NCBI RefSeq assembly: GCF_053078305.1
Contig: NZ_CP166879.1
Length of the DNA: 64,000 nucleotides
Strand: one strand, 5' to 3'
Every line of letters begins with the position of its first letter. Within the stretch, counting starts at the first letter, position 1. A program made the position numbers and the translations under genes. The notes below the pieces were generated by a model that saw only the letters and a program-made list of their open reading frames with translations, ran no database searches and had not been told where the DNA came from. Below are positions 10,513 through 14,566 of this stretch, piece after piece.

Positions 10513-10953
10513 ATGAAACGCATGATGTTGATCGGCCCCTGCCAGTGTGGAAAGACATCACTGACCCAGTACCTAAGAGGAGAAACGTTACATTATCAGA
10601 AGACCCAAGCGATTATCTGGTCCCCTGACAACATCGATACCCCTGGTGAGTATCTGGAAAACCGTTGCCTGTACAGCGCGTTACTGGCCAGTTCTTGCGA
10701 AGCAGACATCATTGCGCTGGTGCTGAATGCAGATGCGTTGTGGTCTCCGTTCTCCCCTGGCTTTATTGCTCCAATGAACCGCCCGGCAATCGGCATAGTG
10801 ACCAAAGCAGATCTGGCTGCCACGGAGCAAATTTCTTTTGTCGCCACCTGGCTCACCCAGGCTGGCGCACAAAAAGTGTTCATCACAAGCGTAGTTACAG
10901 AAATCGGTATCAATGAACTGATGAGCTTTTTGAATACTAAGGAAACTCTATGA
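10513..10953 (+). CDS. pduV: EutP/PduV-family GTPase-like protein
   Basis: 146 aa; P-loop-like [10 protein letters not shown]. Confidence 0.75.
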
Positions 10954-12146
10954 CCCTAAAAATAATGGCTATTAATGCAGGTAGTTCCTCACTGAAATTT
11001 CAGTTATTGGTTATGCCTGAAGGGAAAATGCTTTGCCAGGGCGTGATCGAGCGAATCGGTATGGCAAATGCGCGAATGAGCATGAAAACCAGTGAGCAGA
11101 AATGGCAGGAGACCTCGTCGATTGCCGATCATCGCGAAGCGGTGACACTGTTGCTGGAAAAACTTATCAGTCATCAAATCATTAACAGTTTACAGGATAT
11201 TGACGGTGTAGGTCATCGCGTGGCACACGGTGGTGAATCCTTCAAAGACTCAGCGCTTGTAACCGATGCCACTCTGGCGGAAATTGAACATCTGGCAGAA
11301 CTGGCTCCCTTACATAATCCGGTTAATGCATTAGGAATCAGAGTTTTTCGTCAATTGTTGCCGTCAGTTCCTTCTGTCGCGGTTTTTGACACAGCCTTCC
11401 ACCAGACGCTGGAGGAAACCGCTTATATTTATCCCCTGCCCTGGCGCTATTACACCGAGTTTGGCATTCGTCGATACGGTTTTCATGGCACCAGCCACAA
11501 GTATGTCAGCACGACATTGGCTAAAAAATTGGGCGTCCCGGTTAGTGCATTACGCATTATCTGTTGTCACCTGGGCAACGGTAGCAGCATCTGCGCAATT
11601 AAGGGGGGGAAATCAATAAATACTTCTATGGGTTTTACACCGCAGTCTGGCGTAATGATGGGCACCCGCAGTGGCGACATCGATCCTTCCATTTTACCCT
11701 GGATCGCACAGCGTGAAGGGAAAAATCCCCAGCAACTTAATCATCTGTTAAATAATGAATCAGGTTTATTAGGTATTTCTGGCATCTCCCATGATTACCG
11801 CGATATTGAGTTGGCGGCAGATGCAGGTGATCGCCGGGCAGCACTTGCACTTACCTTGTTTGCCCAACGCATCCGATCCACTATTGGTAGCTACATCATG
11901 CAGATGGGAGGACTGGACGCGCTGGTTTTTACCGGGGGAATAGGCGAAAACTCCACGCGTGCCCGGCAGGCAATTTGCCATAATCTGCATTTTTTAGGCT
12001 TGGTAGTAGATGAAGAAAAGAACCGACGCAACGCAACTTTTATCCAGGCTGATAATTCTATCGTCAAGGTAGCTGTTATAAACACTAATGAAGAGTTGAT
12101 GATCGCCGAGGATGTCATGCGAATCGCACTCAGGTTAGCGGAGTGA
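10950..12146 (+). CDS. pduW: Propionate kinase (acetate kinase family)
   Basis: 398 aa; [20 protein letters not shown] acetate/propionate kinase N-terminus; last pdu gene present. Confidence 0.85.
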
Positions 12147-12363
12147 AAAAATGACAGTAGCGTAATACACCGCGTTTTGTGAATAACTTAGTCATGGTTG
12201 GATCACCAGCAGTGAGATACTACTGGCCTGCCATATCCCACAATATCTTACCTGACTCGATAACTGCCAGTCATGCGTGTCGTTACGGGGAAGTCATCTT
12301 CACAGGGATTTTCAGTCAGTTAGCATTACCAACATCCATTCACCAAATTACCGGAGATAATCG

Positions 12364-12697
12364 ATGTCAAAACCCCGATGGACCATTGAACAGAAAAGGC
12401 AGCACGTTGCTGCATGGTGCGCCAGTGGTCTTACACGCCAGTAATACTGTGAACTCAATGATATTCCCTTCACATCACTTCGCGAATGGACGCAGGATGT
12501 CGCAAAAGCTGAACGCCGGGCAAATGAACTGACCGTTCTTCCCGTTCATAATTGCACCACTACTGCATGCTGATGTACCACAGCCCGTCACGAATGAGCT
12601 AGTCACGCTCTTCCTTCCCGGTGGAGTACGGATGTGCTGTCAGCCGTCACAACTTACCGATGTCTTCAGGACACTCAAATATGCTCAGTCCTGATAA
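12364..12697 (+). pseudogene. IS66-family orfA, disrupted by in-frame TAA and a frameshift
   Basis: ATG 12364 gives MSKPRWTIEQKRQHVAAWCASGLTRQ, then TAA at 12442-12444, then the same frame continues YCELNDIPFTSLREWTQDVAKAERR...; a +1 frame then runs to overlap the orfB start. Confidence 0.4.
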
Positions 12698-13067
12698 TGT
12701 CTTCCTCGCGATTAAACCTGTTGACATGCGCCGGGGCATCGACACACTGACGCAGTATATACAGATGAACTCAGGTCGACATGGCATGCATGAGGGAGCA
12801 GCCTTCGTCTTTGTTAACAAAGCCCGTTCGCGTATCAAAGTTCTGCGCCAGGATAAACACGGGGTGTGGCTGTGTACCCGCCGTCTGCACAAAGGCAGCT
12901 TCCGCTGGCCACATGCAAATGACGCCGCCTGGCACCTCACTCCCGAGGAATTTAACTGGTTTATTGCCGGTGTTGACTGGCTGCAGGTTAAGGGACATGA
13001 GCTGACGAAATGGGTCTGGCAGAATGAATCTGAACTGCGCCCTGAAAACACACAAATACAATGCTAA
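12681..13067 (+). CDS. IS66-family accessory protein TnpB (orfB)
   Basis: ATG at 12681; motifs PVDMRRGIDTL, AFVFVNKARSRIKVL, HGVWLCTRRLHKGSFRWP typical of IS66 Orf2. Confidence 0.7.
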   Translation: MLSPDNVFLAIKPVDMRRGIDTLTQYIQMNSGRHGMHEGAAFVFVNKARSRIKVLRQDKHGVWLCTRRLHKGSFRWPHANDAAWHLTPEEFNWFIAGVDWLQVKGHELTKWVWQNESELRPENTQIQC

Positions 13068-13163
13068 CTCAATGAAAAATAATGAACATCTGTACCGGGA
13101 GTGGTATGCTCCCCTGTATGGATATCTCTGCTCTCAACACCACGAATTGGCATCGAAGTTCAA

Positions 13164-13795
13164 TCAGCTATTCGCATCCATTCGATCAATCGGGAACTGA
13201 CTTACCACTATCGTGCTGCTTTTCCCGTAACGATCCTCTATGATCTCCAGAAGGTCATTACACTGGGCGTTACTTAACTGTTCCAGCCCCAGATCGTCCA
13301 GAATTAGAACCTGTATTTTTTGCAACTGTTTCAGATGGTTCAGCCAGTTGCCATCAACACGTCCCTGAGCCAGTTGTTCCAGTAATCACCGGTTCTACAG
13401 TACCGGACGCTGTGTTTCTGTCGACATGCCTGTTCGCCCAACGCATTGGCTATCCAGCTTTTGCCGCATCCTGTCGGACCGGTTATCAGCAGGTTTTTCC
13501 TGTGGATTATGTAGTGACCGTTCAGCAACTCCCTCATCTGTTCAGCCCACAGACCTCTTGAGGCCGGATAACGCAGCCCTTCCGATGTTGCCTGGTATTT
13601 CAGGCCGGCATTTTTTCTCAACCGTGCCACACGACTGGTTTCCCTGCTCAGAAGCTCGCCATCAACCAGCAGCATCAGCCTTTCCTCGAACGATAGTTCG
13701 TCGTAAGTCTGAGGCGTTTCCCGCTGCCGTATCAGGCTCCCAGCCATCGCCGGGAGTTTCAGTTGGATCAGTTTGTTTAACAGATTATCACTCAT
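13164..13795 (-). pseudogene. istB: IS21-family helper ATPase IstB, frameshifted
   Basis: ATG at 13795 (minus) with AAGGAA upstream; Walker A GPTGCGKSW; frame breaks near 13375 and resumes in another frame (ILDDLGLEQLSNAQCNDLLEIIEDRYGKSSTIVVSQFPIDRMDANS*). Confidence 0.65.
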
Positions 13796-13811
13796 ACGGT
13801 TGTTCCTTCCG

Positions 13812-14250
13812 TCAGTGGTAGTAGCCCGGACCACGCAGATTTTCATGCTCTGAAGCATATGCCGGATGTTGTTCGCCCTGACGGGATAATGGAAGCTCAG
13901 GGTTCTCCCTATGGTGACGCAACAGATTGTCGATAAAGCGTCTGTCCGGTGCGTTATAGTGCAGGGCAACGTAACAGGCCTTTTCCAGCCATTCCGAACC
14001 GTATTTTTTCTGAAGTGTCAGCAGACCCAGGATTGCACGGTAAGCCAGTTCCGGATGGAGTTTTGCATTCAGCATGGGTTCAACCACCCGACCTGTGGAC
14101 GGGCCTGTACGTTTTCCCTGCTCGATAAGGCATTCCGGTGTCCATGTCCCGTGCCGCCGGTGGCGCTCAGGCATGTGAAGCGGATTGGTTGTGTATTTAT
14201 ATTCATGTGTGCTGCGCGGATGTTGCCCCCACGCAACCGGCGAAACACTC
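13812..14250 (-). pseudogene. istA: IS21-family transposase IstA, C-terminal fragment only
   Basis: Only about 145 C-terminal residues (...LLTLQKKYGSEWLEKACYVALHYNAPDRRFIDNLL...ENLRGPGYYH*) are present; no upstream continuation in any frame. Confidence 0.6.
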
Positions 14251-14566
14251 ATATGAACTGACCACTCTAGGGAAGGACATATTCCTACCATTAACAGAAA
14301 ACTCACCAATAAAGACCCGGCTAAAACGACTTCCAGTGAACCATCACATAGTACCAGGTTGGATAAAGTCCATTCTCAACCGCAAACCACTGGGTCAGTT
14401 AAATATTCTGAATGACTGGTATTGTAATTATACGTAAAAATAACGCCAACAAACTGGTCAACCAATAAAAGCAAGAGGTTGATCACTTTCCTGGTAACGG
14501 GAAACGGGTAATATTTGGAACAACATGTGACCTTGTAAGCTTCCTTCTTAACCATTTGAGGTATAT

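Follow-up and report, generated by a model that had tools for sequence, protein, structure and literature searches.

The window analysed here, a 64,000-nucleotide stretch of contig NZ_CP166879.1 (NCBI RefSeq assembly GCF_053078305.1), opens inside a pdu operon, and the features of its left part are collected in Table 1. All genes from pduG to pduW are full-length, the gaps or overlaps between neighbours do not exceed 28 nt, and pduE, which is cut by the window start, is complete in sister contigs, so that the description of pduE-pduW as intact and tightly coupled in an earlier note on this DNA holds. Profile matches cover the whole length of PduG, L, M, P, U, V and W. The genes that the earlier note had proposed to look for upstream, pocR, pduF and pduABCD, are present in the sister contigs to the left of the window, with divergent transcription of the regulator PocR (NF047788, 530 bits) and the facilitator PduF. 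From left to right, the complete module thus consists of cbiA', cbiB' and cbiG' remnants, pocR, pduF and pduA-W; its right-hand two thirds lie in the window. It encodes a B12-dependent diol dehydratase, PduCDE (PduC, D and E on sister contigs directly upstream), together with its reactivase PduGH; the BMC-H, BMC-T and EutN-type vertex components of a shell (PduJ, K, T and U with BMC domains, PduN with an EutN_CcmL domain, and PduA and PduB upstream); and, with full-length profile matches, the pathway enzymes PduP, PduL, PduQ and PduW and the corrinoid-recycling proteins PduO and PduS. A terminal pduX and an adjacent intact cob/cbi operon, which characterize the Salmonella-type arrangement, were not found. 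Because pduX and cob/cbi are accessory to catabolism, their absence leaves a Pdu locus, although one that falls short of the full Salmonella-type regulon.

Table 1. Features of the pdu module, the adjoining IS remnants and the right-hand neighbour in the 64-kb window
Feature	Position	Strand	Evidence and remarks
pduE, 3' part	1-370	+	5' cut by window start; complete 171-aa Dehydratase_SU gene in sister contigs
pduG, diol dehydratase reactivase alpha subunit, 610 aa	385-2217	+	TIGR04491, 957 bits, full length
pduH, reactivase beta subunit, 113 aa	2207-2548	+	Pfam Dehydratase_MU on identical gene
pduJ, shell protein	2577-2852	+	Pfam BMC
pduK, shell protein	2874 or 2856 (start)-3332	+	Pfam BMC
pduL	3332-3964	+	NF011652/NF011957 for pduL-pduN block; Pfam PTAC
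pduM	3961-4443	+	NF011652/NF011957 for pduL-pduN block; Pfam PDU_like
pduN	4447-4722	+	Pfam EutN_CcmL
pduO	4734-5741	+	pduO-pduS block: TIGR00636, NF011927, RnfC-like match; Pfam
pduP	5738-7126	+	as pduO
pduQ	7137-8249	+	as pduO
pduS	8246-9601	+	as pduO
pduT	9604-10158	+	Pfam BMC
pduU	10158-10508	+	Pfam BMC; NF012012/TIGR02528 for pduT-pduV block
pduV	10513-10953	+	Pfam PduV-EutP; NF012012/TIGR02528 for pduT-pduV block
pduW, propionate kinase, 398 aa	10950-12146	+	Pfam Acetate_kinase, residues 4-387; NF009063, positions 1-396 of 404, 810 bits
Orphan spacer, 130 bp	12147-12276		no homology to pduW-pduX intergenic region or anything else searched
ISEc49-like IS66-family remnant, ~94% identical	12277-13147	+	left terminus intact (GTGTCGTTACGGGG...); rest of tnpC and right end missing
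tnpA pseudogene	12364-12691	+	TAA at codon 27 (12442-12444) and frameshift
tnpB ORF	12681-13067	+	open
tnpC, first 10 codons only	13118-13147	+	remainder missing
ISSso4-like IS21-family remnant, ~94% identical	13148-14238	-	tblastn and comparison with ISSso4
IS21 istB-proximal end, sub-terminal piece	13148-13198	-	outer 22 bp missing
istB'	13182-13795	-	frameshifted; last 47 codons gone (C-terminal truncation)
istA'	13815-14228	-	last 138 codons only
MFS-transporter block, start	14227-15859	+	92% identical to E. coli pheV-island sequence; MFS gene 14567-15859

The pdu DNA of the window shares approximately 75-79% identity with the pdu loci of Salmonella and Klebsiella and the native one of E. 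coli (approximately 75% for the last), and none of 5,426 complete E. coli genomes contains the module. The PduW cluster to which the window belongs is found only in E. coli, and the next nearest PduW is that of Citrobacter koseri, with 86% amino acid identity. As judged by sequence divergence, the window's pdu genes are a xenologous, apparently horizontally acquired module distinct from the native chromosomal locus of E. coli. A plasmid origin was considered and dropped because the module occurs in no plasmid record. The native E. coli pdu locus (e.g., in strains H15 and LF82) specifies the same pathway with the same shell and enzyme genes and likewise lacks pduX, but it is situated at another chromosomal site and ends at pduV beside tmaR/yeeA, with neither an IS nor pduW; no complete E. 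coli genome contains pduX-like DNA. The Salmonella operon, which the earlier note had used as its yardstick, is therefore not a suitable one for a locus that is xenologous in a species whose own pdu operon stops at pduV in the absence of any IS. Compared with the cob-pdu regulon of Salmonella enterica and Citrobacter (cobT...cbiA, pocR, pduF, pduABCDEGHJKLMNOPQSTUVWX), the module has the same genes in the same order between pocR/pduF and pduW, with amino acid identities to Salmonella of 82% for PocR, 88% for PduF and 82% for PduW, but it lacks pduX, its cbi/cob genes are reduced to the cbiA', cbiB' and cbiG' fragments, and it resides on a genomic island rather than in the chromosomal yeeX-phs locus.

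The absence of pduX relative to the Salmonella/Citrobacter layout, noticed earlier, is borne out: a tblastn search of the 64-kb window with Salmonella PduX returned no PduX-like sequence (the best E-value, 2.7, is noise), whereas the same query picks up pduX, downstream of pduW, in 38 of the 39 representatives of enterobacterial species whose PduW identity is at least 76%. PduW matches the PduW-type equivalog NF009063; its catalytic domain is complete, and its C-terminal tail is 6 residues short of the 404 aa usual in relatives. The shorter tail need not reflect a breakpoint inside pduW, as the tail following "...DVMRIAL" varies naturally among relatives and is missing in Tolumonas and Aeromonas. 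In 28-30 of the 41 relatives scanned, a fixed intergenic motif is located at +15 and +48 nt past the pduW stop. In relatives, pduX starts only approximately 80-100 bp past pduW. The 130-bp spacer of the window lacks this motif, and no remnants of pduX were detected in it by blastn-short against 78 relatives, by three-frame translation or by conserved-motif search. Distant blastn of the spacer against all complete E. coli genomes gave no match either, and there is no terminator-like site in it. A search of Rfam gave no match in the window between 1 and 22 kb, and thus no structured RNA was found after pduW.

One account of these observations would be that pduX was never in the operon of this lineage and that pduW was the native last gene of the donor's pdu operon. 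The earlier note had named an IS-free genome with the same pduW end as speaking against its own reading, and this objection partly applies: in Enterobacteriaceae bacterium RIT691, the genes after pduW are unrelated, and neither an IS nor pduX is present there. The end of the native E. coli operon at pduV and the separation of pduW from pduX by 0.8-1.9 kb in Phytobacter, Kosakonia, Tolumonas and Aeromonas also indicate that the operon end is evolutionarily plastic. We nevertheless regard a native end at pduW as unlikely, since pduX directly follows pduW in all of the closest relatives (Citrobacter, Klebsiella, Salmonella and Intestinirhabdus, with 81-86% PduW identity) and since the cbi remnants on the other side of the module show a canonical B12-linked layout in the ancestor. 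The presence of pduX in 38 of 39 representatives and of the fixed intergenic motif in most of the relatives scanned suggests that pduX was ancestrally present.

The IS material beyond the spacer agrees with the earlier description of an IS66 remnant in which orfA is interrupted by a stop, orfB is intact and a transposase gene is absent, followed on its 3' side by an IS21 remnant on the opposite strand. The IS66 sequence begins 130 bp past pduW with a clean left terminus, identical to the termini of three independent ISEc49 insertions. The right terminus has been deleted, so that inverted repeats are not present at both ends (a search for repeats that might be target duplications, 8 bp long in this family, gave only short matches at chance level), nor is a complete set of tnpA, tnpB and tnpC; this piece is a remnant rather than an element. 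Neither does the IS21 sequence contain istA and istB between terminal repeats: the whole istA-side end is missing too, and a 163-bp internal deletion has occurred between CGGGAACT repeats. Compared with intact ISEc49 and ISSso4 of E. coli and Shigella, with which the retained parts share approximately 94% nucleotide identity, the pieces in the window are non-autonomous, having neither a transposase nor the IS66 right end nor either of the IS21 ends. On its far side, the IS21 fragment is overlapped by the MFS block by 12 bp (14227-14238).

The two IS pieces had been described as nested, and the way in which they are joined does not bear this out. With the true end of ISSso4 set from the GGATAC target duplication in strain VTB97585v, the IS21 copy of the window begins 22 bp inside that end, and the join with IS66 lies within a 13-of-17-nt similarity; together, these two features rule out a clean nested insertion of IS21. 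By its sequence, the join appears to be a microhomology crossover, produced by recombination or deletion and not by insertion. Alignments with the window were obtained for ten sister-assembly loci, six of which span the pduW-IS region. Five of the six have the same structure at 99.96-99.995% identity, and the remaining one (L006) carries a further deletion of 173 bp across the IS66/IS21 join, apparently showing that decay is continuing. The same comparison bears on the possibility that the arrangement is an artefact of assembly or sequencing at a repeat boundary. Short-read assemblies are indeed often broken or scrambled by IS elements, but the junctions recur unchanged in the sister assemblies examined, including one 5.5-Mb contig, and IS copies that have diverged by approximately 6% from active ones would not collapse onto them, which makes the probability of an artefact negligible.

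A more direct role of the IS elements can be envisioned, in which IS66 was inserted between pduW and pduX or inside pduX, IS21 was inserted into IS66, and subsequent deletions took pduX together with the island edge. The genuine transposition terminus near pduW, the short distance at which pduX starts in relatives and the disappearance, by deletion or recombination, of all sequence to the right of tnpC codon 10 are in line with such a course of events. It predicts, however, that the 130-bp spacer should hold the intergenic motif and the first codons of pduX, neither of which is there, and no nested insertion is visible since the IS21 fragment has no terminus; we therefore consider direct IS-mediated loss of pduX improbable. 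Because the IS66 terminus is intact and the spacer is devoid of the conserved pduW-pduX motif, there is no visible sign that pduX was deleted by the IS elements. The IS debris is junk DNA at a module boundary and not a demonstrated cause of the loss of pduX. Of the sequential insertion and deletion scar proposed earlier, the deletions are real, as several of them can be traced in the IS66 and IS21 pieces, while removal of pduX by an IS is not seen.

The left flank of the module has been reduced as well. Beyond pocR, tblastn with Salmonella Cbi proteins detects only decayed cbiA' (30% amino acid identity), cbiB' and cbiG' (residues 1-137, 59%). PocR and PduF are 82-88% identical to their Salmonella counterparts. 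Further to the left lie a cobalamin riboswitch and btuB, which adjoin the boundary of the module, an iha-type receptor, an AraC regulator and a SPATE, in a region 98% identical to btuB-iha-espI of strain STEC1585. LPA/LAA-type pathogenicity-island modules of LEE-negative STEC carry espI or lesP, iha and btuB (PMC6920203); the likeness is to the left-neighbour module, and as annotated these islands, unlike the one described here, have no pdu genes beside btuB. To the right, strains STEC005 and A19 have pheV islands syntenic with positions 14.2-40 kb of the window, and it is by this synteny that we tentatively assign the sequence to a pheV island; there is no tRNA gene in the window. The pdu module is thus part of a mosaic island in which it is flanked by an espI/iha/btuB-type module on the left and by an MFS/ept/cdiBAI region on the right, and the site of the IS debris, previously taken for an island edge, is an internal module boundary.

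Taken together, the data are probably best explained by ordinary island decay, in which a catabolic pdu module was stripped of B12-biosynthesis genes on both flanks and only later accumulated decaying IS sequences. The ancestor would have been a canonical enterobacterial cob-pocR-pduF-pduA...X regulon. On the left, the cbi/cob operon would have been worn down to three decayed fragments, and pduX, for L-threonine kinase, would have been lost on the right through a break at, or a few codons from, the pduW stop. What was retained is predicted to suffice for building a microcompartment, breaking down 1,2-propanediol, and recycling and adenosylating imported corrinoids (PduGH, PduO and PduS). An ISEc49-like IS66 element may then have transposed to a site 130 bp downstream of pduW, after which recombination in the 13-of-17-nt similarity would have joined tnpC codon 10 to a point 22 bp inside the end of an opposite-strand ISSso4-like IS21 element. 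Microhomology deletions may have followed, one of 163 bp inside IS21 and another fusing mid-istA to the sequence upstream of the MFS gene. This order of IS events is plausible and is derived from the anatomy of the junctions. The reduction of both flanks, affecting pduX and cbi, points to a loss of all B12-biosynthesis functions and not to an IS accident specific to one edge; the link drawn here between the loss of pduX and that of cbi is a functional rationale and not a demonstrated cause.

E. coli obtains corrinoids by uptake, which makes pduX and cbi dispensable for the pathway. PduX is a cytosolic L-threonine kinase for Ado-B12 synthesis and not a part of the microcompartment (PMC7181861). 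The absence of pduX should not be taken to mean that propanediol catabolism is damaged, since PduX serves de novo B12 synthesis and the native pdu operon of E. coli does without it. When carried on an island, a large metabolic regulon can shrink until only the catabolic core is left, and IS fragments at module boundaries can come from microhomology deletions instead of nested insertions.

In the literature on pdu clusters in pheV, LPA or LAA islands, we found only a one-line mention of a "unique" propanediol cluster in the LEE-negative STEC strain C165-02 (PMC3491183). It is possible, although we would not favor it, that pdu, btuB and the cobalamin riboswitch constitute a self-contained fitness unit on an LPA/LAA-like island that imports B12 in order to respire or ferment 1,2-propanediol. 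In that case, a rare E. coli lineage would have received, from a Citrobacter-like donor not yet sampled, a Pdu microcompartment of a second, non-native type, the module may be the same as the C165-02 cluster, and the loss of pduX and cbi would represent adaptive streamlining and not random decay. What is unusual about the locus is only that its divergent pdu operon is carried on an island, with btuB, iha and a SPATE gene as neighbours, a combination that could matter for the gut fitness of the lineage that carries it.

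ORF listing combined with profile searches revealed an unbroken plus-strand series of pdu genes from pduE to pduW, which is listed together with the adjoining IS remnants in the table below. Between neighboring pdu genes there are either overlaps of 1-11 nt or gaps of at most 28 nt, and Pfam and NCBIfam profiles cover their products at essentially full length. PduW is a protein of 398 aa that matches the PduW-type equivalog NF009063 at positions 1-396 of 404, with an acetate-kinase domain spanning residues 4-387. The ORFs, their spacing, and the full-length profile matches thus agree with the earlier note, which had described an intact, tightly coupled operon with pduW as the last gene. 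A check of the upstream DNA for pocR, pduF, and pduABCD showed that pduABCDE, pduF, and pocR are all intact to the left of the window on sister contigs.

Features of the pdu module and the adjoining IS remnants
Feature	Position	Strand	Remarks
pduE, 3' part	1-370	+	gene cut by window start
pduG	385-2217	+	
pduH	2207-2548	+	
pduJ	2577-2852	+	
pduK	2874-3332	+	
pduL	3332-3964	+	
pduM	3961-4443	+	
pduN	4447-4722	+	
pduO	4734-5741	+	
pduP	5738-7126	+	
pduQ	7137-8249	+	
pduS	8246-9601	+	
pduT	9604-10158	+	
pduU	10158-10508	+	
pduV	10513-10953	+	
pduW	10950-12146	+	
IS66-family remnant, ISEc49-like	12277-13147		~94% identical to ISEc49
tnpA	12364-12691		TAA at codon 27, frameshift near codon 60
tnpB	12681-13067		open ORF; 87% identical to ISEc49 TnpB; one scrambled patch
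tnpC	13118-13147		first 10 codons only
IS21-family remnant, ISSso4-like	13148-14238	-	~94% identical to ISSso4
istB'	13182-13795		frameshift as well as lost C-terminal codons
istA'	13815-14228		last 138 codons only

The lack of pduX after pduW was upheld: a tblastn search of the whole 64-kb window with a 300-aa PduX query from a Salmonella arizonae locus found no PduX (the best E-value, 2.7, is noise), whereas the same query found pduX 3' of pduW in 38 of 39 representatives of enterobacterial species with a PduW sharing 76% identity or more with the window protein. At blastn sensitivity, pduX-like DNA is present in no complete E. coli genome. The earlier note took a pduW end in IS-free genomes as evidence against a scar; such an end does exist in Enterobacteriaceae bacterium RIT691, where pduW is followed by unrelated genes without IS or pduX, but not in the native chromosomal operon of E. 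coli (strain H15, locus L001), which ends at pduV and continues directly into tmaR, yeeA, and sbmC, also without IS. Measured against the Salmonella layout, the native operon is missing pduW as well as pduX, whereas the window module has pduW; for the window's pdu end, the Salmonella operon is not the right standard of comparison. E. coli salvages corrinoids and does not synthesize them de novo. Because of this, and because the module's own cbi genes are already destroyed, pduX would have no role in such a host. PduX is described, in a passage of PMC7181861 citing Fan and Bobik 2008, as a cytosolic L-threonine kinase for Ado-B12 synthesis and not a microcompartment component. In a representative of a cryptic Escherichia species (Escherichia sp. 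MOD1-EC7003, locus L033, 6001-6126), codon 42 of pduW is a premature stop, and pduX 3' of this broken gene appears intact.

In 28-30 of 41 relatives scanned, the pduW stop is followed by a fixed motif, AATTGCGGCAAATCATGG 15 nt and CATGACACTATGCGCC 48 nt downstream. This element, strongly conserved at a fixed position in Citrobacter, Klebsiella, Salmonella, and Intestinirhabdus (loci L008-L047 and L085), contains a CATGG/CCATG inverted repeat and could serve as a promoter or operator for pduX. The 130 bp between the window pduW and the IS66 terminus lack both motifs, contain zero pduX codons, and are unmatched among the relatives searched and all complete E. coli genomes. Thus, homology to the canonical operon ends at the pduW stop or a few codons earlier; the PduW tail is variable by nature, and the breakpoint may lie inside it. 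The target DNA of IS66 was already non-pduX when the element inserted, and the IS debris is a later decoration of the boundary, not the visible cause of pduX loss. With such a spacer, the idea that IS elements removed pduX is not borne out.

The IS66 copy starts at 12277 with GTGTCGTTACGGGG, identically to three independent ISEc49 insertions (strains CFT073, OkiPb01695, and C25), and its left terminus is therefore intact. The remnants themselves had been recognized properly: the first IS66 ORF, tnpA, carries a stop and a frameshift, the second is open, tnpC is reduced to 10 codons, and an IS21 remnant lies 3' on the opposite strand. Their "nested" arrangement, however, found no support. In strain VTB97585v, a 6-bp GGATAC target duplication marks the true ISSso4 end; by this standard the window copy has lost the outermost 22 bp on its istB side, and the IS66 to IS21 changeover between 13147 and 13148 falls in a 13-of-17-nt similarity (IS66 CACGAATGACATCGAA, IS21 CACGGATTGGCATCGAA). 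Inside the IS21 piece, a 163-bp deletion between two CGGGAACT repeats costs istB its last 47 codons, and at 14227-14238 the fragment overlaps by 12 bp with DNA found upstream of an MFS-transporter gene and 92% identical to E. coli pheV islands. Of the five junctions within these 2 kb, four are of the microhomology or deletion type, the IS66 left end being the sole transposition end. The proposed scar of sequential events therefore holds as regards several rearrangements at the site, but not as regards nested insertion or IS removal of pduX. Sister assembly GCA_043765965.1 (locus L006) has a further 173-bp deletion across the IS66/IS21 join (window 12994-13166), so decay at this join is continuing; its downstream identity to the window is only 98.8%, versus 99.96-99.995% for other strains.

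On the far side of pocR, a tblastn search with the full set of Salmonella Cbi and Cob proteins detected only three fragments, the cbiA 3' part (degenerate, 30% aa), the cbiB 5' part, and codons 1-137 of cbiG (59% aa), and no trace of cbiC-F and cbiH-cobT. These fragments lie in AT-rich DNA (~40% GC; 8963-10411 of L097, a locus reaching left of the window). They are far more diverged from Salmonella (30-59% aa) than the adjacent pocR and pduF (82-88%), which suggests that they are long-standing pseudogenes. Common E. coli island DNA returns ~190 bp past them at 98% identity. The foreign segment, from cbiG' to just past pduW, measures ~20.7 kb and falls short of the canonical cob-pdu regulon on either side.

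The pdu part shares only ~75-79% identity with the pdu genes native to E. coli, Salmonella, or Klebsiella, and the module is found in none of the 5,426 RefSeq E. coli genomes that are complete. The assembly collection contains 86 blocks in which an identical PduW has the same neighbors, and every named member of the PduW protein cluster is E. coli. Since the next nearest PduW among 5.8 billion proteins is that of Citrobacter koseri (86%), the module is a xenolog, its donor being an unsampled Citrobacter-like bacterium. The locus falls in known kinds, a Pdu locus and IS66 and IS21 remnants. It is probable that a catabolic pdu module was acquired horizontally, that B12-biosynthesis genes were lost from both of its flanks, and that IS insertion and microhomology-mediated decay of the boundary came later, an order suggested by the junction anatomy.

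A mildly interesting by-product is a divergent island-borne pdu operon next to btuB, iha, and a SPATE gene. Directly adjoining the module (L097 10629-20435) are a cobalamin riboswitch and a full-length second btuB, together with genes for an iha-type TonB receptor, a YdeO-like AraC regulator, and a SPATE autotransporter, an arrangement known from the LPA and LAA islands of LEE-negative STEC (PMC6920203). Across the btuB-to-iha part (10629-13198), identity to the btuB-iha-espI region of strain STEC1585 is 98%; for the regulator and the SPATE past 13198, the match is one of gene order and domains only. A propanediol-utilisation cluster was listed among "unique" regions of the LEE-negative STEC isolate C165-02 (PMC3491183, Steyert et al. 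2012) and may be the same module.

Typical E. coli island DNA (97-98% identity) makes up the right 45 kb of the window, its contents including the MFS gene, an ept remnant, cdiBAI, and an aryl-polyene-type lipid cluster; we infer the probable tRNA site of the island from synteny only. At ~20000-35000 there are a SymE-type toxin, DUF4376, cdiI, orphan cdiA-CT fragments, and a full cdiA/cdiB contact-dependent inhibition locus, followed by the aryl-polyene-like lipid biosynthesis cluster, all 97-98% identical to pheV-island DNA. The minus strand carries further debris at 16394-16810 and 18093-19420, namely a phosphoethanolamine transferase reduced to a C-terminal, sulfatase-domain fragment and an IS4-family transposase that is split (DDE_Tnp_1 and Nterm_IS4 domains).
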